In this document: positions 261 to 62,788 of the stretch, in pieces
Position numbering within the stretch: the stretch's first letter is position 1
Layout of the letters: each line of letters opens with the position of its first letter
From: a bacterium
GTDB taxonomy: Bacteria; Zhuqueibacterota; Zhuqueibacteria; Residuimicrobiales; Krinioviventaceae
Length of the DNA: 64,000 nucleotides
Reading direction: 5' to 3'
NCBI GenBank assembly: GCA_963675755.2
Contig: CAXXMD010000003.1
Location: 1,568,001-1,632,000, forward strand
The notes under the pieces: generated by a model
Told to the model about the DNA's origin: nothing
Database searches by the model: none
The model's input: the letters and a program-made list of their open reading frames with translations, nothing else
Translations under genes and position numbers: made by a program

Positions 261-3200
261 TCAATGAAACAAAACCTCTGCAGGGATTTCTTTAATTTTG
301 CCATTATCTTTTTGCCAACTGACAACAAGATCTTTGGCTCGTCCCATCTGGAAATAATCTACTTTGATTTTGTGGAACCCTTTCTTTAATCCTTTTTGTC
401 CATACAGAACATAAGAAGCGTGCGCGCCATCATTGTCAACAATCAGTTCATCGTTCACATACAGCGTTGCGCCATCATTGGATACGAGATAAAATGTATA
501 TATACCGTTTTCAGGCACATTTATATATCCGGTCAGGTTGTAACCAAAAACTCTCGAGTCTTTGATTGCATCGACATTAAAAGTACGGAGAACACCTGTA
601 TCTTTAACCGGATATTTCAACAGGTCAGCCGTTTCTGCGCATAATCCTTCACGATAAAGATACTTGATCCCGGGTTTTAATCCGGAAACATTTTGTGGTT
701 CTTCAAGTCCTGTTTTTCTAACGGAAACAGTGGTTGTATAGCTTGGTACCTTACCCTTAACAAAGGTTTTGGCCTTGATAACAGCCGTTTCGTTTACTTT
801 GAACGGACCGGTATATTTTGTTGAAGATTGATCGGGTTCTGTTCCGTCAAGTGTATATTTGATTTCAGCCGTTTTATTTTCCGTTGACATTTTAATTAAA
901 CTGTAATCAAGAAAGACTTTTTTTGAAAAAGTAACTTGAGGCATGACCACTGCATCATATTTCAATGAATATGGACGGTTTTCTTTAGCTTTGCCCCATT
1001 CTAAATTTGGTTTGTTTCCCATTTCAAAAACAATTTCAGAACCCTTGATGATATCATCATATTTTATATAAGATTTTTGATAGGGGTTTCCATTCAAAGA
1101 AACGGATTGAATATATGGATTGTCGATTGAATTGTTATTTGCAACAACCGTAAACTTTTTGCCGTTTTCCAGGTTGATGGTTACCTTGTCAAACAACGGA
1201 CTGCCGATAACAAAATAATCCATACCCGGAGTGACAGAGTAAAAACCCATTGCGCTCAAAATATACCATGCGGACATTTGTCCTGCATCTTCATTACCGC
1301 TGATACCATCAGCCTTGTCAGAGTACAAGGTTGTTAAAATTTGGCGGACTAGTTTTTGTGTTTTATATGCGGAACCAACATAGTTGTACAGATAGGAGAC
1401 ATGATGACTGGGTTCATTACCATGGGCATACTGGCCGATAAATCCGGTAACATCTGCAATTGTCATTTTTGTAAAATCGGTTTCTGTGGAAAACGCAACA
1501 TCCAGCCATTTTTCAAAAGTTTTATCTCCACCCATCATCTCTATCAAGCCTTCAATATCCTGTATCGCAAAAGTTGAATATTGATACGCATTGGCCTCAG
1601 TGTAATGATGTGAACTTTGCATGGGATCGAAATTTTTATACCATTCATATTCGCTGCTTTTGGGGACCATGAAATTGTATTTTGGGTTAAACAGGTTTTT
1701 ATAAAATTGACCGCGTTGGTTATAAAGATCATAATCAGCTTTATTGAAATCTTTGGCTAATACCGATACACACCAATCATCAAAACTGTATTCAAGTGTG
1801 GAAGAAACCGATGCAATTTCGAATTCATAGGGTATAAAACCATACTGCAAATAGTGTTTTTTCCCTGGTATGTTTGCATCGGACAGTTGTTTCATTCCTT
1901 TGTAAGCTTTTTCCACATCGTAATCACGTAATCCCTTTGCATAGGCATCTGCGACGACAGGTAAAGAGTGATAACCGATCATTGAGTATCTTTCGTTCCC
2001 GGAAAATTCCATAATAGGCATATTGAGCGAGTGTTCATATCGTTCAATGAATGTTTTAATATATTGAGTTGTTTTTTCTGTATTGATTATTGTCTGTAAC
2101 GGATGTAATCCACGGAAAGTATCCCATAAAGAAAAATTGGTATAGTTGTCAAAGTTCTTATCCGCAGTGTAAATTTTATTATCTGTGCTGCGGTATTTCC
2201 GGTCAACATCCATATAGATATTGGGATGAATAGAAGCATGATAAAGCGCGGTATAGAATGTTTTCTGTTGTTCCCGGGTACCACCTTTAATATCGATTTT
2301 ATTTAACTCTTTGTTCCATGCTTTTCTTGCCAGTGTTTTGGTTTTTTCAAAATCCCAATACGGCAGTTCTGCTTTCATATTCTTAATTGCGCCATCAATG
2401 CTGACTGTGGAAATTGCAACTTTGAGTAGAACTGGTTCATCTTTATCAGTAGAAAATTTGAAAAAGCCTTTAATATTTTTACCTTTGGCTGTTGTAAGGT
2501 TGTTCTTTAAAGTATTGTCAACTTCCAGACCGAATGAATCAAAAGGTTTTGAAAACTCTGCGACAAAATAGATTACCTTTGGGCCGTCAAGACCACCTGA
2601 TGCTGCCCGGTATCCCAGCAATGTATTGTCTTTAATTTCAATAAAGAGACTATCCGGCGTATCTTTATTACCGTGAACCAGGTCTAAAATTACGTTGGAT
2701 TCCTTACTCTGTGGAAAGGTATATTTATGCAAGCCAACACGTTTGGTTGCAGTGAGTTCAACCTGGACATTATAGTCATCCAGCAGTACAGAATAATATC
2801 CGGGTGACGCATATTCGTTATCATGAGAAAACCTTGAGCGGTAGCCGGTTTTGGTATCCAAGGTATCTCCGGGAGTAAACAACAGTTCGCCTACAGTAGG
2901 CATGAACATGATGTCTGAACCACCTTCTCCACCTGTACCGCTGAAATGAGTATGTGTAAATCCCATAATGGTGCTGTCAGAATAATGATAGCCGGAGCAA
3001 TTGTCCCAAATTCCCACAGAATAATCATTACCAGTTTCTTTGTCCCAGGCGCCCACTTTGGTATCAGGCGAAAGCTGTACCATACCAAAAGGGAGTGTAG
3101 CTCCCGGAAATGTGTGGCCATTCCAGTTCGTCCCGATCATGGGATCTACCAAAGCGGCATAGTCATTTAATTCTTTCTCCTTACATGAAAATATTAAAGC

Positions 3201-53977: not shown

Positions 53978-55216
53978 TTGAAAACATATCGGATTGTTTT
54001 AGTTTTGATATTGTTGACAGGTTATTTTGCAGCAGGACAAGAGAACCATTGTATAACCTGCCATCAGGAGCTGGATGCTTCACTGGCTTTACCCGTTTCA
54101 GAAATGAAAGATGGTGTGCATTTTTTGTCGGGTATTTTGTGTAATGATTGCCATGGGGGTGATCCAACCACAGATGATCCTGAACTTTCTATGGATCCTG
54201 CAAAGGGATTTGTCGGTACACCGCAATTCAAAGATATTGCAATACTTTGTGCCGGCTGCCATAGCGATGCGGTTTATATGAGAAAATTTAATCCCAATGT
54301 TTCTACGGAACAATATAGCAGGTACCAAACAAGCCAGCATGGGATTTTACAGGCCCAGGGAGATATTAAAGTAGCAACGTGTACCAGTTGTCATGGTGTC
54401 CACAATATTAAAAAAGTCAGTGATCCTACAGCAACAGTTTATCCTGTGAATTTGGCTGACCAATGCGGCAAGTGCCATGCTGACAAGGAATATATGCAGG
54501 AATATGGGATAGACACACAACAGCTTGAGCATTACAAGAACAGTGTCCATGCAAAAATGCTTTATGATCAGGGGGATATTGGCGCACCAACCTGTAATGA
54601 TTGCCATGGTAATCATGGTGCTACTCCTCCCGGTATTACATCAATAGCATATGTGTGTGGTAATTGTCATATGATTCAACAGGAATATTTCACAGCCAGT
54701 CCACACAAAACGGGATTTGATGAAATGGGTTTTTCGGAATGTGGAGAGTGCCACGGTAATCATGACATTCAGCAAACTAACGATGAAATGCTGGGAGTGG
54801 ACGAGCCCGCCTTGTGTATAAACTGCCATGATTCTGATTCTGATGGTTACGCGGTTGCCATGAAATTAAGAACAGATATTGACTCATTAAAGGCAGTAAT
54901 TGGTATTGCAGAAAAAATGATTTTTGACGCCCAAAAGGCGGGCGTAGAAGTTGTAGATGAAGAAATGAATCTGGCAAAAGCTCAAGAGTCACTTGTTCAT
55001 TATCGCACAATGATTCATACTTTTTCTAAAGAAAAGGTGAATGAGACATTTAAAGCAGGATTAGAGTCTTCAGATAATGCGTATAAAATTGGTCAACAGG
55101 CATTAAAAGAACTGTCAAATCGTAGGATTTTATTGATCATTATGGTCTTGTTGACTCTTTTAGTGGCAACGTTGTTAATTTTTTATATCAAACAAAAAGA
55201 AAACCATATACATTGA
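53978..55216 (+). CDS. 9-heme cytochrome c with C-terminal helical stalk and TM anchor
   Basis: Nine CxxCH (CITCH to CINCH); signal peptide; C-terminal hydrophobic helix; TTG start. Confidence 0.92.
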   Translation: MKTYRIVLVLILLTGYFAAGQENHCITCHQELDASLALPVSEMKDGVHFLSGILCNDCHGGDPTTDDPELSMDPAKGFVGTPQFKDIAILCAGCHSDAVYMRKFNPNVSTEQYSRYQTSQHGILQAQGDIKVATCTSCHGVHNIKKVSDPTATVYPVNLADQCGKCHADKEYMQEYGIDTQQLEHYKNSVHAKMLYDQGDIGAPTCNDCHGNHGATPPGITSIAYVCGNCHMIQQEYFTASPHKTGFDEMGFSECGECHGNHDIQQTNDEMLGVDEPALCINCHDSDSDGYAVAMKLRTDIDSLKAVIGIAEKMIFDAQKAGVEVVDEEMNLAKAQESLVHYRTMIHTFSKEKVNETFKAGLESSDNAYKIGQQALKELSNRRILLIIMVLLTLLVATLLIFYIKQKENHIH

Positions 55217-55225
55217 GAGTAAAAT

Positions 55226-56842
55226 ATGGTAGAAGACAAATTTGATCTTTTGTTGAATCGTCTTGAGAGCCTGGAATCCAGGATCTCTACAATAGAAGGC
55301 TATTTGCGAATTGGGCCGGTAAAAACTGGCCAAAGTTCACACCCGGTTACCAAAAATGCAGATTCAGATCAGTCTTTGGAATTTACAATCGGCGAATTCT
55401 GGCTGGCACAGGTAGGTGCTGTTTTACTCATGCTGGGAGTGGCTTTTTTTATCAGTTACCCCATACCGGGTATTCCGGCCATTGCTGCAAGTTTATTGGG
55501 ATATGTTGCCGTGGCAGCGCTTATGGCATTGTCCCGATACTGGCAGGAAAATTATAATTATCTCTCACGGATTTTGTTTGGCGGAGGGCTGCTATTGATC
55601 TATTTTGCAACACTGCGGTTGCATTTTTATAGTACAGACCCTCTGATTTCTTCCACATTTCTGGGTGTATTACTGGTATTTATGGTATTAACGATTATAC
55701 TGTATATTGCGGTCAAGCGCAAATCCGGTTTTGTTGTTTCCATGGTCCTGCTGTTATTTCTGTTCTCCGGGCTGATTAGCGAATCGCCTTTGTTCTCTTT
55801 GGTGGTCATTACAATAACCGGCTTGATTACCGTTTCCCTGTTGTTTCGGACCAACTGGCATGGTGTTGCAACAAGTGGATTGTTTTTTGTTTATTGTGCA
55901 CATTTGTTGTGGCTTTTGAATAATCCGCTTGTTGGCAATACATTACAGCCGGCACCAGGCCATGGTTTTAATCTTTTTTTCCTGGCAATGTATGCGTCTG
56001 CATTTGCTGTAATTAACCGGTTTCGTAATCCGGAACAATATCCATTGTTTTTTGAAATTTTGATTTCGGTTGTTAACAGTCTCGGGATTTTTCTTGTTGG
56101 TGCCTTGAACATTTTGTTTTATTTCAAGGAACAGTCGAGTATTTTGGGGTTTTTAACATTTTTATATTTCATTATTGCCGCAATAATAAACTACAAGCAC
56201 ACCAAAGGAAATTTTTCTGCACCCATAACCGCATCTTTTGGATTTATTGCGCTTTCTTTTTCAATTTTTACCCAGTTTAACAATCCTGATTATTTCTTTT
56301 GGCTGGCTTTACAGAGTTTAATGGTGATTGTTTTTGCGTTATGGTTCAGGTCTCGTTTAATAGTTGTTGCAAATATATTCATTTTCCTGTTTATATATGC
56401 ACTGTATCTGATTATATCTGAACCGAATGGATTGATCAATTTGAGTTTTGCGTTGTCGTCTTTGGCAAGTGCGAGAATTTTAAACTGGAAAAAAGAGAGA
56501 CTTTTAATCAAAACCGATATGATGCGAAATTTATATCTGGTTTGTGCATTTTTTATTGTTCTCTATGGCCTCTTCCATGCGGTACCTGAAAACATTGTCA
56601 GTCTCTCATGGATGGGTGCTGCAATATTTTATTTTGTGCTGAGTCTGCTTTTAAAAAATATCAAATATCGCTGGATGTCGATATTGACCGTATTTGCTAC
56701 AGTATTGCATGTGATCTTTTATGATATGTCTAACGTAGCTTCAGGATTCAGAATTGTTGTTTTCCTTGCAATTGGTCTTCTGATTTTGTTGTTTTCTGTC
56801 GTATATTCAAGATATAATAAAAAATTATCACGAATTCACTAA
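55226..56842 (+). CDS. DUF2339-like polytopic membrane protein
   Basis: N-terminal coiled RLESLESRI, LEFTIGEFWLAQVG, many TM helices, C-terminal RIVVFLAIG. Confidence 0.7.
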   Translation: MVEDKFDLLLNRLESLESRISTIEGYLRIGPVKTGQSSHPVTKNADSDQSLEFTIGEFWLAQVGAVLLMLGVAFFISYPIPGIPAIAASLLGYVAVAALMALSRYWQENYNYLSRILFGGGLLLIYFATLRLHFYSTDPLISSTFLGVLLVFMVLTIILYIAVKRKSGFVVSMVLLLFLFSGLISESPLFSLVVITITGLITVSLLFRTNWHGVATSGLFFVYCAHLLWLLNNPLVGNTLQPAPGHGFNLFFLAMYASAFAVINRFRNPEQYPLFFEILISVVNSLGIFLVGALNILFYFKEQSSILGFLTFLYFIIAAIINYKHTKGNFSAPITASFGFIALSFSIFTQFNNPDYFFWLALQSLMVIVFALWFRSRLIVVANIFIFLFIYALYLIISEPNGLINLSFALSSLASARILNWKKERLLIKTDMMRNLYLVCAFFIVLYGLFHAVPENIVSLSWMGAAIFYFVLSLLLKNIKYRWMSILTVFATVLHVIFYDMSNVASGFRIVVFLAIGLLILLFSVVYSRYNKKLSRIH

Positions 56843-56901: not shown

Positions 56902-58404
56902 ATGAAATTGCGTCTACCTTTCAGTTATTACAATACGATTTCGTATGCTGGTACTGCTTTGGCGTTAATAGCATTTTTTATGTTTGTATTTTTATATGTT
57001 TTGTCATCCATTACCGGAGCAGATAAAGCATATATGGGACTCGTGATTTTTATTCTCATTCCTTCATTTATTATACTCGGTCTTTTATTGATTCCTGCCG
57101 GAATGATATTAAAAATTAGAAAAATCAAAAAGTTCGGAGAAGGAGAGCACGAAGATTTTCCTGTTCTCAATTTAAATCTGCCCAATCACCGGAACGGAGT
57201 GATTATTTTTACAATTGTGACCTGTATATTTTTCTTTCTTTCAGCATTGGGGAGTTATGAGGCGTATCATTATACCGAGTCGAACCGGTTTTGTGGTACA
57301 TTGTGTCATTCTTTAATGATTCCCGAGTATACCGCTTATCAGGCGTCACCTCATGCACGTGTACATTGTGCGGAATGTCATATTGGAACGGGTGCGAGCT
57401 GGTGGGTAAAATCAAAAATGAGTGGTTTAAAGCAGGTTTACGCAACATTGACCAATACTTATCCTAAACCTGTACCTACACCCATAGAGAATCTTCGCCC
57501 GGCCCGTGAAACGTGTGAAGAATGTCACTGGCCGCAAAAAATATATGGAAAGCAGCAGCGTATAGAATACTATTATCTTGCTGATGAAGAGAATACGCGC
57601 TGGGAGATTGACATGCTGATGAATACCGGTGGTGGAAATCCTAGCATGGGTCAATCGACGGGTATTCACTGGCATATTAATCCTGATATTAAAATCGAGT
57701 ATATCACTACAGATGAAAAAAGAGAAACCATTCCTCAGGTTATTCTGACCAATAAAGTTACCGGCAAGGTTACAACGTATAACAATACCGATGAACCTCT
57801 TGACGAGGATGCAGAATATACTGAAAGACGCACAATGGATTGTATTGACTGTCATAACCGCCCCAGTCATATTTATAATGATCCTTCCAGCTTTGTGAAT
57901 GTTGCAATTGCAAGTGGTCAGATAGATGTTTCTTTACCCATGGTAAAGCAAGCTGCTATTGAAGCATGTATACAGGAATATGAATCAACAGAACTGGCAA
58001 TGGAAGGTATTAAAGAGTATTTGACAACTTTTTATGAAGAGAATTATCCGGATGCCATATTAAACAAGGGTAAACTGCTAAAATCTATCATTGGTGTACA
58101 GGAAGCTTTTGCAAAAAACATTTTCCCGGAAATGAATGTAACCTGGGAGGGCTACCCAAACCATATAGGTCATATGACCTCAAATGGATGTTTCAGGTGT
58201 CATGATGATTTACATGAAAGTGATGATGGTGATGTTATATCGAAAACCTGTAATGATTGTCATTTAATAACGGCACAGGGTAAAGAAGAGGATGTTCAAT
58301 TTACATCCACCCGAAATGCTCTTGATTTTGTTCATCCGGTTGATATTGATGGAGAATGGCAATATCTTAATTGCAGCGAGTGTCATTCATCTCCGCCAAT
58401 ATAA
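56902..58404 (+). CDS. NapC/NirT-related 7-heme membrane quinol dehydrogenase (ImcH-like)
   Basis: Three N-terminal TM helices; CGTLCH (CX3CH) plus six CxxCH; TESNRFCG, KMSGLKQVY, LRPARETCEECH, MDCIDCHNRPSH. Confidence 0.88.
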   Translation: MKLRLPFSYYNTISYAGTALALIAFFMFVFLYVLSSITGADKAYMGLVIFILIPSFIILGLLLIPAGMILKIRKIKKFGEGEHEDFPVLNLNLPNHRNGVIIFTIVTCIFFFLSALGSYEAYHYTESNRFCGTLCHSLMIPEYTAYQASPHARVHCAECHIGTGASWWVKSKMSGLKQVYATLTNTYPKPVPTPIENLRPARETCEECHWPQKIYGKQQRIEYYYLADEENTRWEIDMLMNTGGGNPSMGQSTGIHWHINPDIKIEYITTDEKRETIPQVILTNKVTGKVTTYNNTDEPLDEDAEYTERRTMDCIDCHNRPSHIYNDPSSFVNVAIASGQIDVSLPMVKQAAIEACIQEYESTELAMEGIKEYLTTFYEENYPDAILNKGKLLKSIIGVQEAFAKNIFPEMNVTWEGYPNHIGHMTSNGCFRCHDDLHESDDGDVISKTCNDCHLITAQGKEEDVQFTSTRNALDFVHPVDIDGEWQYLNCSECHSSPPI

Positions 58405-58454
58405 CGGAATAAATAGATTAATGATATGGTTCTAAAATATAGCAAAGCTACCTA

Positions 58455-58638
58455 ATTCACGCTACGTTGGGTTGCTGACAGGGAGCGACTCAATGTGAAT
58501 ACGGATGCCCTGTTGAAAGGAGGTGATCTTATTATTCATAGTACGATAATAAGAGCCTCCGGTGAAGCTTGTTAGCACCAGGTAATCCGGATGCTTATAG
58601 TTTAATAACCCCGCTTATACATTTGGCGGGGTTTTTTT
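58455..58638 (+). ncRNA. Candidate structured ncRNA (pseudoknot, extended SD, terminator)
   Basis: Nested stems, loop GACAGGG complementary to CCCTGTT, GAAAGGAGGTGATC, terminal terminator hairpin. Confidence 0.55.
58607..58638 (+). terminator. Rho-independent terminator
   Basis: AACCCCGC...GCGGGGTTTTTTT. Confidence 0.8.
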
Positions 58639-58682
58639 ATATAATGATTGTAATAGTTTCAAGTTATTTATACATTGTAAAC

Positions 58683-59768
58683 ATGAAAAAATGTATGTTA
58701 AAAATTAATGTGAGCGCAATAGTTTTATTGCTGCTATTCGTTCTTGCGCATGCACAGGATGAAAACAGAAACAGTCTGGTTGCACTTCCATATGCTTATT
58801 TTACACCGGAAACGGATATTGCGGCAGGCGTAGGAAGTGTTTATTCTTTTAGAGCTGCAGACAGCAAGCCGGATATTCGCCCATCGAACATCAAGGTTGC
58901 ACTGACGTTTACACAGAGAAAACAGTTATTGTTTGCCATACAACCCGAGCTTTATTTTAATAACGAAGCATGGCTTGTAAACGGTACCTATAATTATTAT
59001 AAATATCCTGATAAATACTGGGGGGCAGGCATCAATACTCCCGATGAAAACGAAGAGGATTTTACTCCATCGTTAATCCGGACTTTTACCAACATCCAAA
59101 AGCGAATTTTACCGGGATTGTATACCGGTATCCGCTACCAGTTTGAGTATATTGCGTTAAAAGAAACAGACCCCAATGGTGTATTGCAGTACAAAACAAT
59201 TCCGGGAAGTGGTGACGGGGCGGCATCGGGTTTGGGTATTCTTGTAAACTGGGATACACGTAATCATACGTATTTTCCAACGAGTGGTCATTATCATCAG
59301 TTTTATGCGGTTTCTTTTGGTTCTGCAATTGGTAGTGATTTTGATTTTACAATGTACACCCTGGATCTGCGCCACTATATGCCGATATTCAAGAGCCATG
59401 TGCTTGCCTTTCACAGTTATAATATCTTTATTGACGGAAATCCCCCTTTTCAGATGATGGGATTACTTGGCGGTTCTTATTGGATGCGGGGTTATTATTT
59501 TGGCCGGTATCGGGATAATAACATGATAACCATGCAAACCGAGTATAGATATCCATTATTCTGGCGCTTTGGCGGTGTATTTTTTGCCGGTTTGGGTGAT
59601 GTTGCGTGCAAGATTGACCATTTTCACTTGCGGGATTTTAAAGTCAGTTATGGTGCGGGAATTCGGTTCATGTTTGATACACGTGAAAAAATCAATGCCC
59701 GATTGGATCTGGGTTTTGATGAGTGGGGAACCATGTCTATTTATGCATTGGTGGTTGAAGCGTTCTAG
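58683..59768 (+). CDS. Omp85/BamA-TamA family beta-barrel protein lacking POTRA domains
   Basis: Signal peptide; ALPYAYFTPET, WDTRN, LGGSYWMRGY, GAGIRF, RLDLGF, terminal EAF. Confidence 0.85.
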   Translation: MKKCMLKINVSAIVLLLLFVLAHAQDENRNSLVALPYAYFTPETDIAAGVGSVYSFRAADSKPDIRPSNIKVALTFTQRKQLLFAIQPELYFNNEAWLVNGTYNYYKYPDKYWGAGINTPDENEEDFTPSLIRTFTNIQKRILPGLYTGIRYQFEYIALKETDPNGVLQYKTIPGSGDGAASGLGILVNWDTRNHTYFPTSGHYHQFYAVSFGSAIGSDFDFTMYTLDLRHYMPIFKSHVLAFHSYNIFIDGNPPFQMMGLLGGSYWMRGYYFGRYRDNNMITMQTEYRYPLFWRFGGVFFAGLGDVACKIDHFHLRDFKVSYGAGIRFMFDTREKINARLDLGFDEWGTMSIYALVVEAF

Positions 59769-59791: not shown

Positions 59792-59826
59792 AAAAAGGCA
59801 AAGGATAACTCCTTTGCCTTTTTTTT
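59792..59826. terminator. Bidirectional terminator between convergent genes
   Basis: AAAAAGGCAAAGGA-TAAC-TCCTTTGCCTTTTTTTT. Confidence 0.85.
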
Positions 59827-62617
59827 ATTTATATTGTGTCAGCATCGCCCAAATGATCATAACCACCAGGCTTAGACCTAAAATTAGGAAAAAGAAACCA
59901 AAAATACGGGACAGAATGTTTAGCCATCTTGGTGGCTCTGTTTCACGTGTTAAACCTTCCAGTTCTCCGTTTTCTTTTAATTGCTGATATTCTTTGGGCC
60001 TTTCCAGTTTCCATTCCTCATAGGGGACTTTGCCGGTAAAGATAACCGGATCCATGGGAAATTTTTGAGGTCTGAAATGCGTGTTAAAAAAGTGGATTGT
60101 AAAAATAAATCCGGTTGCCAGCAAGGCTTCATCACTGTGAATGATTGTAGCTACATTAATCAGGTAGCCCGGTAAAAAGCGGGTAAAGAATTCCGGAAAC
60201 CAGAGTACAAGTCCAGTTGAGCCAATAACCGCAACACCCCAAAATACTGCAAAGTAATCAAATTTTTCCCAATAGGTCCATCTGCCGTAATGGGGAGCTT
60301 TTTTCCGACCCAGGAACCAGAGGATGGTATGAAAAAAGTCTATAAAATCCTGTTTTGTGGGAATCATTCCGTTTTTGTTAAACATGAATTTCCAGTAATT
60401 CATGCCTCTCTTTTTAGCTTCACGACCAATGTATACAAAGTGGAGAATAAAATAAAGGAACGTAATGATTGCACAAATTCTATGAACAATACCGGCACCT
60501 TCAGCGCCACCAAAGAACTGGCTGATATTATAGGCCCACTCGTAACCGGCAAATTTCAAGCTCATTCCAGTGAGAGCAAGACCAAAAAAGCTTACTATGA
60601 CCATTAAATGCAGTATTCTGGGTAGCCTGCCAAAACGAACAATCCATCGTCTGGGATGTTTGGCCAGATGTTTGTGAATACGAATGCGTTCCCGAATAGA
60701 CCGGGGGATCCATAATATGGTATGAATTCCAAAAAAGGCAAAAACGCCAATTACCAGAAAGGTCATAAACCAGAAAGTGTAAAATAATGCTGGGTATTTG
60801 TCGCGATTGTGATGCGTTGCATGTGTAAGATAGCCGGTAAACTTGCGGTTTGAATTGGGATGACATTGTTTACAGGTTTCTATGATATTGTCCCGACTGA
60901 GTGTTGAAGCTATGTTTGTAGGAGGTAATATATTATGCGATCCATGACAATCGGAACATTTGGCTGCTTTTTCTGAACCCAGTTTAGACACTTTGCCGTG
61001 ATAGGTTTCAAAATAGGTTTCAGTTACATCCTCATGACAGTGACCGCACTGGCCCAGGATCTGCGAACGAAAATCGTCACGGTCTACACGTTCAATTTCG
61101 TGTGATTTGTGGCAATCGTTACAGGCCGGAAGCTCCTTGTCTGTTTTGGAAACCAGGGGGCTGTGAATAGAGGATTTAAACGTCTCGTAAATGCCCAGGT
61201 GACATTTTGAACAGGTTTTTCCTACATTGGTATCATGCACACTTGATTCAGGATTACTTGCCGGCAGTGCGTTATGAGGTGTATGGCAATCGCTGCAAAC
61301 GGCAGATACCATAAGTCCGCTGTCAAACAAGCCTTTGCCGTGAATACTCATGGTGTAATGTTCAATAACCTGGGTTTCTTTACCAGTATACCTGACTGCA
61401 GCTTTTTCTCCTTCCCGGTGGCATTGCGCGCAAAGGGCCGGAATATTGCGGGTAAAGGTTGGGGAGTCTATGTTGTCTCCGGCAAGGATCTTGTGATCAC
61501 CATGACAGTTGGTACAGTTTGGTGCATTTTTATCACCTTTGGCCAGTAATTCACCGTGAATGCTGGTGAAGAAATTGTCAGCCTGTTCAACATGACAGAT
61601 GGAGCAATCTACAGGCCCAGAGTCTTCACAAACAGGACGCTTGCCCCGGCTGACGTTTGTGTGACATTTGATACATGAAATGTTTTGGCCGTGAATGGAA
61701 TGCTGCAAATCACTAGCGTCTACATATAATGAATCTATAGTTCCGTCTTCCATTTTGCGGGTAAGATCTTGTTTTTCGTGACAGTTCATACAATAGTGAT
61801 CTGTAAATTCTTCCGCGTAAAAAACACGGCGTATTTTATGAGGTGAATGACAGTCCACGCAGGCGGGTATGGCATTGGGTTGTTTTTCCCACAATTCCCC
61901 TTTGATCACTTTTTGGTGTACCCGTTCAATCTGCGCGTGGCATTGCATACAGGTACCAGCAATATTGTCTCTATGGATGGAGGATTTGGGATTTGTATGC
62001 GGCAACACATTGTGAGATGTGTGGCAGTTGGTGCAAACGGCTGTAACAATAAGTCCACCCTGAAATAAACCTTCTCCATGAATAGACATGGTATAGTTTT
62101 GAATAATGTCTGACTGGGTGATTCTGTGCCGGCGAGCAACCTCGCTGTCTTCTCTGTGACATTGTCCACATAGCATGGGGATATTCATAACATATGTGGG
62201 TGATTCCGGATTTGTGTTTTTTAAAATCGTATGCTTGTTATGACAATCAACACAGACTGGTGCGTCTTTGTCACCCTTTGTATGTGCAATACCGTGGGTG
62301 CTGAGAGCCAGGTTTTCACCAATGTCATCATGACACATGTTACAATCCACTTTTTCAAGCGGCGTGTCATGCGGAAAATCTTCAACATCTGCGTCAACAT
62401 GGCACGATACACATCCATTTTCTTCATGGACGGTACCCTTTAATGTGTTTTCCGGTATAAAAATAGAAACCGTTTTCCCATCCTTTTCCATGGTAAGGGT
62501 AGCGTCGGAATGACACATTAAACAGTCTTCATCTTCTGCTGAAAAAGAAGGGAGAAACATGAGGAGCATAAGCAATGAAACAAGAACAACACGGATTAAA
62601 TTTGAGGGCTTTTCCAT
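59825..62617 (-). CDS. 19-heme cytochrome c fused to HydC/FdnI-type cytochrome b (CbcL-like)
   Basis: 19 CxxCH counted; C-terminal TM domain with RILHL, IVHRI, YWEKFDYFAVFWG, IIHSDEALLA, HFFNTHFRP; start 62617 or 62626. Confidence 0.92.
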   Translation of the reverse strand: MEKPSNLIRVVLVSLLMLLMFLPSFSAEDEDCLMCHSDATLTMEKDGKTVSIFIPENTLKGTVHEENGCVSCHVDADVEDFPHDTPLEKVDCNMCHDDIGENLALSTHGIAHTKGDKDAPVCVDCHNKHTILKNTNPESPTYVMNIPMLCGQCHREDSEVARRHRITQSDIIQNYTMSIHGEGLFQGGLIVTAVCTNCHTSHNVLPHTNPKSSIHRDNIAGTCMQCHAQIERVHQKVIKGELWEKQPNAIPACVDCHSPHKIRRVFYAEEFTDHYCMNCHEKQDLTRKMEDGTIDSLYVDASDLQHSIHGQNISCIKCHTNVSRGKRPVCEDSGPVDCSICHVEQADNFFTSIHGELLAKGDKNAPNCTNCHGDHKILAGDNIDSPTFTRNIPALCAQCHREGEKAAVRYTGKETQVIEHYTMSIHGKGLFDSGLMVSAVCSDCHTPHNALPASNPESSVHDTNVGKTCSKCHLGIYETFKSSIHSPLVSKTDKELPACNDCHKSHEIERVDRDDFRSQILGQCGHCHEDVTETYFETYHGKVSKLGSEKAAKCSDCHGSHNILPPTNIASTLSRDNIIETCKQCHPNSNRKFTGYLTHATHHNRDKYPALFYTFWFMTFLVIGVFAFFGIHTILWIPRSIRERIRIHKHLAKHPRRWIVRFGRLPRILHLMVIVSFFGLALTGMSLKFAGYEWAYNISQFFGGAEGAGIVHRICAIITFLYFILHFVYIGREAKKRGMNYWKFMFNKNGMIPTKQDFIDFFHTILWFLGRKKAPHYGRWTYWEKFDYFAVFWGVAVIGSTGLVLWFPEFFTRFLPGYLINVATIIHSDEALLATGFIFTIHFFNTHFRPQKFPMDPVIFTGKVPYEEWKLERPKEYQQLKENGELEGLTRETEPPRWLNILSRIFGFFFLILGLSLVVMIIWAMLTQYK

Positions 62618-62788
62618 AATGCACATCTCGTCATTGGTTTATGTTTTTGTGGAATTTATATCAAGTCAGCCAGCCTTGATACAGGACGAGTATGTCTTGG
62701 CAGTCCGTAAAAGAGGTCAAATTGATTGGAATTGTGTTAGAATACCATCATAACAAGGATTCCAACACAAGGCTCTATTTGGTTACAC

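Follow-up and report, generated by a model that had tools for sequence, protein, structure and literature searches.

Why would a bacterial genome hold an unannotated, structured RNA of about 185 nt, in which a long Shine-Dalgarno (SD) sequence is not followed by an ATG at the normal distance? Such an RNA was noted in a 64,000-nt stretch of DNA (hereafter the window; assembly GCA_963675755.2, contig CAXXMD010000003.1, positions 1,568,001 to 1,632,000 of the forward strand) from a member of the Krinioviventaceae. An earlier note, made from the sequence alone, proposed that it is a ribosome-binding or sponge small RNA (sRNA), or a riboswitch-like attenuator of the adjacent Omp85 gene. From a comparison of homologues, we favour another reading, with a probability of about 0.62, namely that it is a free-standing, structure-gated and weakly initiated mini-mRNA with a translated micro-open reading frame (ORF). 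The ribosome is most likely meant to translate the RNA, and not merely to be held by it.

The 16S-tail complement and the mini-ORF

The single 16S rRNA gene that was detected in the window genome ends with GGCTGGATCACCTCCTTTCTATGG. The 14-mer in the RNA is exactly complementary to this tail, as the earlier note had expected from a typical 16S end, and the following base contributes a G.U pair. Two copies of the 14-mer are present in the 6.48-Mb genome, as compared to 0.04 expected occurrences, and the second copy is, judging from the 16S end, probably the 16S gene itself on the opposite strand. The sequence GGAGGUGAUCC is unchanged in 60 of the 87 distinct homologues that were gathered. The SD variants among the homologues (A to G, or AGAGG; AGAGG and GGUGGUCC) still give at least 10 contiguous pairs in a hand alignment to the tail of the window genome, which was used for all variants; the 16S 3' ends of the variant carriers were not recovered, with three of these genomes lacking an assembled 16S gene and a fourth containing only its 5' half. 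The four bases located 5' of GGAGG are purines in most homologues, and a bulged G-A within the hairpin that sequesters the SD (P2, see below) is conserved despite being unpaired. Because the conservation of this super-SD exceeds the needs of the internal hairpin, pairing with the 16S tail appears to be the best reason for it. Initiation led by SD sequences is evident in the window genome, where SD-like 4-mers peak at positions -13 to -9 before the first ATG of 2889 long ORFs. Such clear SD-led initiation in a member of the FCB group (Fibrobacterota-Chlorobiota-Bacteroidota) contrasts with the Bacteroidia.

There is indeed no ATG at normal spacing behind the SD, but a near-cognate ATT is located exactly 7 nt after GGAGG (58531-58533), at the distance where SD-like words are most frequent before the long ORFs of the same genome. 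In the window, the frame reads AUU AUU CAU AGU ACG AUA AUA AGA GCC UCC GGU GAA GCU UGU UAG and ends at 58575. Across the 87 homologues, to which the mini-ORF statistics refer unless stated otherwise, the codon at the start place is ATT in 52, ATC in 22 and ATA in 10 cases, and GTG, ATG and CTC-then-GTG in one case each, with AUH (AUU, AUC or AUA) thus amounting to 84/87. This codon is always AUG or one base off, the lone exception being CTC (L116), where an in-frame GTG is found one codon on. The spacer from GGAGG to the start is 7 nt in 82 homologues, 8 nt in four and 6 nt in one, and a start-like codon is present at 6-8 nt in 86/87.

The frame that follows contains no internal stop in any of the 87 homologues. 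It consists of 13 codons in 44 and of 14 codons in 41 of these, with single cases of 12 and 16 codons; since 85/87 have either 13 or 14 codons, the loop would seem to vary by whole codons only. The stop codon is TAG in 69, TAA in 16 and TGA in two homologues, and is placed six codons after GCC in 85/87. Five changes of one base were identified in the distance from the SD to the strand that closes P2 (strand S, see below), all of them between the SD and the start, and the frame from start to stop is therefore kept. When the variable letters of the ORF were shuffled in 27 clusters with less than 70% identity, the joint chance of finding no in-frame stop was ~1e-7, a value that overstates independence, as the homologues and clusters are related. 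Stops in the other frames were found in 9/27 (+1) and 19/27 (+2) clusters and partly arise from conserved stem letters, for which reason the shuffling was limited to the variable letters. As far as a comparison of homologues can demonstrate it, the mini-ORF frame is under selection. A longer ORF beginning upstream of the SD was also considered and rejected, since an in-frame stop immediately precedes the SD in several homologues.

Structure of the RNA and the competing helices

Folded as RNA, positions 58440-58645 have an energy of -70.9 kcal/mol, as compared to a mean of -50.2 +/- 4.2 for shuffled sequences (z = -4.95), and none of 200 shuffles folds as stably. The complementary strand is likewise structured (z = -4.18), as expected for hairpins. 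All elements that the earlier note had listed were recovered at their positions in the window (Table 1), including the small stem and the terminator after the SD hairpin, where the T-run ends at 58638. The match of the window copy to the covariance model begins at 58455, and the two main hairpins, P1 and P2, are both present in its minimum-energy fold.

The core of P1 consists of GTTGGGTTGCT (58466-58476) paired with AGCGACTCAAT (58484-58494), a helix that is lengthened in the minimum-energy fold. Pairs in P1, P2 and the pseudoknot were counted in an alignment of 67 sequences (A4), in which all 11 modelled pairs of P1 have changed on both sides, with 91-94% of the cells paired. The outer stem ATTCAC/GTGAAT is present in the window as claimed, but it is retained in the closest relatives only (L049, L027) and is not a feature of the family. 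The loop of P1 forms an H-type pseudoknot with CCCUG, and the SD follows six bases later. The five pairs of CAGGG/CCCUG are kept in 95-100% of the sequences, and two compensatory changes were identified, from A-U to U-A (CUGGG/CCCAG in L089 and L146) and from A-U to G-C (CGGGG/CCCCG in L116). Exceptions at that pair are C.A in one lineage (L093, L110, L128) and a mismatch in two single sequences. A sixth pseudoknot pair was rejected, being unpaired in 46/67 sequences. The proposed hairpin-pseudoknot fold was in this manner upheld by covariation.

So was the pairing of the super-SD within a hairpin. The lower part of P2 pairs GGAGGT (58519-58524) with GCCTCC (58555-58560), and the upper part pairs TCTTATTAT with ATAATAAGA. 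In total, 99.6% of the cells are paired and four pairs have changed on both sides, with GGAGG/CCUCC replaced by AGAGG/CCUCU in 4 sequences and C-G by U-A in the family of the window genome. The 3' strand of P2, strand S, has the consensus RRGAGCCUCCGG and can alternatively pair with a later G-rich strand to form P3, which encloses the small hairpin P3a with its loop YUAGCRC. P3 and P3a together are 77.8% paired, as compared to 35-52% when the partner strand is slid, and 5/6 pairs of P3a have changed on both sides (48 sequences). One column in S covaries with both of its partners, with 44 C-G and 4 U-A pairs in P2, and 36 G-C, 6 G-U and 4 A-U pairs in P3. In L068 and L072, S has a C-to-U change whose counterparts are AGAGG in P2 and CAGAUGCUCC in P3, according to a hand reading with the register off by one column. 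The median advantage of P2 over the best fold with an unpaired SD is 6.3 kcal/mol in 68 sequences (range 0.1-15.3), and when the SD is forced to be unpaired, S finds a downstream partner in most of the 68 folds. These alignments demonstrate that P1, P2, the pseudoknot and P3a are real, and do so less strongly for P3. The covariation also supports the suggestion that P2 and P3 are alternative helices, which would compete for strand S.

Table 1. Features of the RNA, with coordinates in the window.
Feature	Position	Strand	Remarks
Whole RNA, ~185 nt	58454..58638	+	5' end near 58454-58457; 3' end is the U-run of the terminator
Outer stem	ATTCAC 58455-58460 with GTGAAT 58495-58500	+	Sequence reading
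P1 hairpin	58463-58476 with 58484-58497	+	Minimum-energy fold; covariation
P1 loop GACAGGG	58477-58483	+	CCCTGTT at 58508-58514
Pseudoknot	Loop CAGGG 58479-58483 with CCCUG 58508-58512	+	Conservation and compensatory changes
Extended SD GAAAGGAGGUGAUC(U)	58515..58529	+	Complement of the 16S 3' tail
14-mer GAAAGGAGGTGATC	58515-58528	+	
P2 hairpin	58519..58560: 58519-58524 with 58555-58560; 58527-58536 with 58545-58554	+	Fold and covariation
Mini-ORF	58531..58575	+	AUU start 58531-58533; 14 sense codons (IIHSTIIRASGEAC); UAG 58573-58575
Shared strand S (AAGAGCCUCCGG)	58551..58562	+	Partner is the SD side (P2) or the downstream strand (P3)
P3a hairpin GCUUG/CAGGU	58567..58583	+	7-nt loop UUAGCAC displays the stop codon
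P3 3' strand (AAUCCGGAUGCUU)	58584..58596	+	Alternative helix; weak in the window genus, 9-11 bp in most other lineages
Intrinsic terminator AACCCCGCU ... GGCGGGGUU, then U-run	58607..58638	+	GC-rich hairpin; sequence and fold

Distribution, transcription and gene context

No match at the gathering score was obtained when the whole window was searched against Rfam 15, including the models for molybdenum cofactor (Moco) and cyclic di-GMP (c-di-GMP) riboswitches, and the RNA is unannotated, as the earlier note had supposed. With E-values up to 10, positions 58380-58720 yielded terminator-driven matches only, at 13-27 bits, none of them to a Moco or c-di-GMP model. Neither did any of 12 homologues reach a gathering score. 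No description of the RNA was found in the literature on anti-SD and sponge RNAs, on RNA motifs in Ignavibacteria and Calditrichaeota and on small ORFs with AUU starts, subscription-only papers and supplements being outside the scope of this search, and the papers retrieved with 10-12-mers of the SD were all ones in which the universal 16S reverse primer is quoted.

The homologues come from metagenome-assembled genomes with the record titles KSB1, Calditrichaeota/Caldithrix, Ignavibacteriota, Chitinivibrionales and Bacteroidota/"Cytophagia". A BLAST search of 61 related genomes recovered the element in the same genus, with 98% identity, and in three genomes of the same family and four genomes from three other families of the class (E <= 1.8e-4). 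A KSB1-titled genome belongs to the same family as the window genome, with L003 and L027 being identical in sequence. An exact-pattern scan of species-representative genomes gave 36 loci, of which 24 were true homologues on reading; the other 12 are chance matches within GC-rich coding DNA. Using a covariance model (R1) that was built from 22 sequences (alignment A2), three phylum samples were searched with strict filters. The RNA was identified in 38/151 genomes from the window's own phylum (including the window genome and the unpublished G118), in 6/151 genomes from the phylum of an Ignavibacteriota-titled genome and in 30/86 genomes from the phylum of a Caldithrix-titled genome. A pattern scan of metagenomes provided 38 loci, all of which were confirmed by R1. 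By its sequence, the RNA is a conserved family common to several phyla of the FCB group, whose members live in sediments.

The RNA is present in one copy per genome, save for one partial second copy at the end of a contig. This copy (L039, 2233-2302; G329:C579:2242-2301) is oriented opposite to the first at a distance of about 100 nt, on a contig of 2.3 kb that ends there; either a true inverted duplication or an error of assembly could explain it. The weak model matches L119 (26 bits), L133 (30 bits) and L132 (43 bits) were considered doubtful or degenerate and were excluded from all counts. If counted, L133 would carry an early in-frame stop. In the degenerate L132 (G337:C13), the SD, the AUU and an open 15-codon frame are kept, and the CCUCC strand of P2 has been lost through an insertion. 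Another homologue (L018; about 2479-2640, minus strand) contains a GC-rich hairpin insertion of ~40 nt (CCCCGCCUGCCUGCAGCAGGCGGGCAGG) between P1 and the 3' strand of the pseudoknot, and the linker between these elements therefore tolerates large insertions.

A sigma-70-type promoter motif (TTGnnn-N16-19-TAnnnT) ends 2-16 nt, and mostly 9 nt, before the model start in 52/68 homologues, as compared to 4.4% of shuffled upstream sequences, and a terminator-like hairpin with a T-run was found within 170 nt in 67/68. In the window genus (58405-58454), ~11 extra bases (AGCAAAGCTACCT) separate a -10-like TAAAAT (58433-58438) from ATTCAC, and these bases pair with 58561-58574 in the minimum-energy fold. 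The relatives from the family have GGGAACA ~35-40 nt upstream, where other lineages have a TTGACT box. The 5' end of the window RNA is uncertain and may lie at 58445-58455, because a standard promoter is absent and because of the extra bases. Contigs with relatives of the element are present in three RNA libraries. Two metatranscriptome contigs of 158 and 152 nt, which come from different studies, span 58454-58605 and 58457-58605 with ~92% identity and have no loose ends, unlike a DNA run that extends past the element on both sides. The RNA-library contigs do not cover 58250-58453 or 58606-58850, which proves nothing; they show presence, not transcript ends or strand, and are a weak hint of a discrete RNA and not proof of transcription.

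The neighbouring genes of the homologues are mixed. Among the Pfam domains were AMP-binding ligases, prolyl oligopeptidase, ferritin, histidine phosphatases, Lnt, UbiE, PBP1, MsrB, NHL-repeat proteins and others, with no recurrent family in 52 neighbouring ORFs beyond lineage-level synteny, which was observed for ferritin and histidine phosphatase in one family and for AMP-binding ligases in two. In the former family (L015, L018, L023, L060, L063, L073), the RNA is followed by a ferritin gene and then by a histidine-phosphatase (GpmA-like) gene on the same strand, an adjacency that may be simple lineage synteny or indicate an iron/redox link. The window RNA is situated between a NapC/NirT-type cytochrome gene (56902-58404) and a gene for a barrel protein with an Omp85 domain (58683-59768). 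Pfam further identified Paired_CXXCH/cytochrome c7 at 53978-55216 and a DUF2339 membrane protein at 55226-56842, and a 933-residue, MtrC/MtrF-like multihaem protein is encoded on the minus strand at 59825-62626. Multihaem cytochrome genes thus flank the RNA, which agrees with its placement within a cytochrome island, and the cluster with its Omp85 gene looks like an extracellular electron-transfer module. This context was not found around the copies in the relatives.

A role of the RNA in cis, as a leader or attenuator for the Omp85-family gene, had been proposed and is on this evidence very improbable. The RNA and the gene are on the same strand, the Omp85 domain is present and the terminator ends 45 nt before the ATG, but the genes that adjoin the homologues are unrelated, with the RNA preceding AMP-binding ligases, ferritin, Lnt, UbiE, PBP1, NHL-repeat and other genes in the relatives, and the nearest large downstream ORF (crude picks) is located on the opposite strand in 13/36 loci. 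Inspection of the sequences by eye revealed no antiterminator that would pair with the terminator, and a promoter-like TATACA-N18-TATAAT (58616-58645) could serve the Omp85 gene alone. From the promoters, terminators and neighbourhoods across the family, we conclude that the RNA is a free-standing transcript and not an Omp85 leader.

Proposed ribosome occupancy, alternative readings and known systems

If the RNA is a gated mini-mRNA, its SD core and start codon would at rest be locked in P2, a helix that is itself backed by covariation. Binding of the 30S ribosomal subunit would open P2 through the long SD duplex, with P3 paying part of the cost, and the 3' arm of P2 would re-pair with the downstream strand to form P3, as suggested by the covariation and the modelled energies. 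The long SD would offset the weak AUH start, so that initiation would be rare, tunable and open to proofreading, in analogy with infC-type starts. A ribosome that has started would read through S to the fixed stop in the loop and thereby melt P3, and P2 would re-form behind it and reset the RNA. Because the only constant residues of the peptide are dictated by base-pairing, the selected feature would be the act of gated translation, or ribosome occupancy, and not the peptide. As its output, such a cycle could serve a sensing function, release the P3 strand for a partner or yield the peptide.

Several observations weigh against this reading. Translation of the mini-ORF rests on sequence comparison, AUH starts are intrinsically poor, and the peptide is not conserved where pairing does not fix the letters. 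The stop lies in the conserved loop YUAGCRC, which could itself be an RNA motif, and the relatedness of the clusters and the stem-borne stops in the other frames limit the shuffling test. In the window genus, P3 is weak, with 6/12 positions pairing in register. The window copy and its genus are without a standard promoter upstream, the window RNA may be co-transcribed with the upstream cytochrome gene, and the contigs from RNA libraries have the limits given above. Also, with a distribution as patchy as that in the three phylum samples, the RNA is dispensable.

An untranslated RNA that binds the 30S subunit, either as a decoy or sponge or as a stabiliser against 5' exonucleases similar to the STAB-SD element, would have its open frame as a structural by-product. 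The complement of 14-15 nt to the 16S tail is in line with such a role, as are the pseudoknot 6 nt upstream of the SD, the conservation of UGAUC beyond what P2 needs (its A-to-G variant, in 8/87, still pairs as G.U) and a start that is a weak AUH and not AUG in 84/87 homologues; STAB-SD is an example of an SD that works without initiating translation (PMC4113751). A decoy, however, needs neither a frame that is stop-free in 87/87, with length changes in whole codons or indels confined to the spacer, nor a UAG, UAA or UGA stop at a fixed place, nor GUG or AUG as replacements of AUH, and one copy per genome with an SD that is sequestered at rest suits a sponge poorly. The pure sponge had been proposed because there was no start codon, and has to be revised since the family keeps a near-cognate start; we regard an untranslated RNA as unlikely. 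The evidence for translation applies equally to a product of 13-14 residues that acts as a micro-protein or signal, and the constant length and the penultimate codon, which keeps its middle G and often encodes Cys, Arg or Trp, would fit with this. The amino acids are not conserved at the variable positions, though, and the constant Gly-Ala-Ser-Gly, the only constant residues, stems from letters that are set by pairing with the SD, wobble positions included. With no signal sequence, hydrophobic stretch or adjacent genes for modification or export, a functional peptide is improbable.

Two further suggestions concern what the RNA might respond to. The 5' hairpin-pseudoknot could be a sensor of a small molecule or protein that sets the balance between P2 and P3, which would refine the mini-mRNA reading and not replace it. 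This is a tentative possibility, to which the compact H-type pseudoknot with its invariant CAGGG/CCCUG and covarying stem directly upstream of the SD, its position next to a pair of bistable helices resembling an expression platform, and the high sequence identity across phyla all point. On the other hand, no associated gene class suggests a ligand, few unpaired bases are invariant as would be expected for a binding pocket, no Rfam aptamer model matches, and an overlap by which sensing could drive switching was not found between the pseudoknot strands and P2 or P3. Somewhat more doubtful is the suggestion that the RNA is a free-standing, trans-acting switch, which is operated by ribosomes and reports the translation state of the cell. 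Here, a 30S subunit with a free anti-SD would open P2 and let P3 form, the weak AUH start would tie commitment to proofreading by IF3, and the fixed UAG, which is followed by C in most members, would tie release to the termination capacity of RF1, UAG-C being a poor termination context. Ribosome occupancy would then hide or expose the SD-like 3' strand of P3 for a putative trans-acting partner. If true, such a translation-state sensor would be of a class that has not been described so far and is kept in several phyla of the FCB group.

By analogy, the gated mini-mRNA would work most like a leader-peptide translation attenuator and the weak starts of the infC type. The leaders of ermC, cat and cmlA contain a short ORF with its own SD that extends across one strand of a pair of helices which exclude each other, and the position of the ribosome sets the fold and frees the ribosome-binding site of a downstream resistance gene. 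The RNA shares with the ermC and cat attenuators a short SD-led ORF that overlaps alternative helices (P2 and P3, with S in common). These attenuators regulate a downstream gene, whereas the RNA has none, with a terminator in 67/68 homologues, no constant gene and no antiterminator seen by eye. The start of infC is proofread by IF3. In Staphylococcus aureus, the conserved AUU/AUA starts of infC, cvfC1 (AUU) and ccpN (AUA) all have strong extended SD motifs (PMC13009471), and the RNA similarly combines a weak start (AUH in 84/87) with an extended SD, at a 7-nt spacer (82/87) that is optimal for the genome. Those near-cognate starts belong to ordinary protein genes (infC with AUU or AUA), as compared to 13-14 codons in a terminated transcript of its own, with a bistable hairpin behind a pseudoknot. 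[quoted passage not shown] STAB-SD does not initiate and is placed within the 5' untranslated region of a long protected mRNA, whereas the RNA has a start-like codon, a selected frame and no downstream mRNA.

The consensus of RF01867 (Caulobacter sRNA CC2171) opens with the same GAAAGGAGGUGAUCC, has a GUG 7 nt after GGAGG and ends in a terminator. It was the only recurring family below the threshold, with 20.8-29.3 bits in 4/12 homologues against a cut-off of 75 for this 159-position model, and was not among the matches for the window itself at E up to 10. The alignment is confined to the SD and the terminator, and nothing in this family corresponds to P1, P2, P3 or the pseudoknot, which makes it an analogue and not a relative. 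Given the perfect SD and the GUG at 7 nt, CC2171 may be the mRNA of a small protein and not non-coding. The H-type pseudoknot riboswitches (preQ1-II/III and SAM-II) place a small pseudoknot between a hairpin loop and a 3' tail beside a sequestered SD, an arrangement that is shared by the RNA, although no Rfam model matches and no gene class is associated with it. As in cis-acting riboswitches in general, the structured domain (P1 and the pseudoknot) covaries, but it does not hold a constant position before one class of genes on the same strand, given the mixed Pfam domains and the 13/36 ORFs on the opposite strand. The mRNA-like domain of transfer-messenger RNA (tmRNA) has a short frame after a pseudoknot and a stop in a hairpin loop; the RNA has no tRNA-like domain (ARAGORN detected 0 genes in 58200-58900) and uses an SD and a start codon, and an ordinary tmRNA was identified elsewhere in the genome (197.8 bits). 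With its own promoter (52/68) and terminator (67/68) across the family, the RNA resembles a small-ORF or dual-function sRNA. The segment from P3 to the terminator did not show a conserved single-stranded seed.

Judged by these comparisons, the RNA is a new family in which regulatory parts of a known kind appear in a new, stand-alone combination. If the reading as a gated mini-mRNA is correct, the family would be widely conserved among phyla that have been little studied (going by record titles, KSB1, Calditrichota, Ignavibacteria and Chitinivibrionia), with a single stand-alone transcript that unites a sensor-like pseudoknot, a bistable hairpin, a maximal SD, a weak start and a micro-ORF of fixed length, parts that are otherwise known only from cis-acting leaders. 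For annotators, it is a caution that an SD without an ATG can conceal a selected non-AUG micro-ORF. The family would also provide a natural model for the rescue of near-cognate starts by an extended SD and for the remodelling of RNA switches by ribosomes, as well as for the question of whether bacteria sense ribosome availability through dedicated RNAs.

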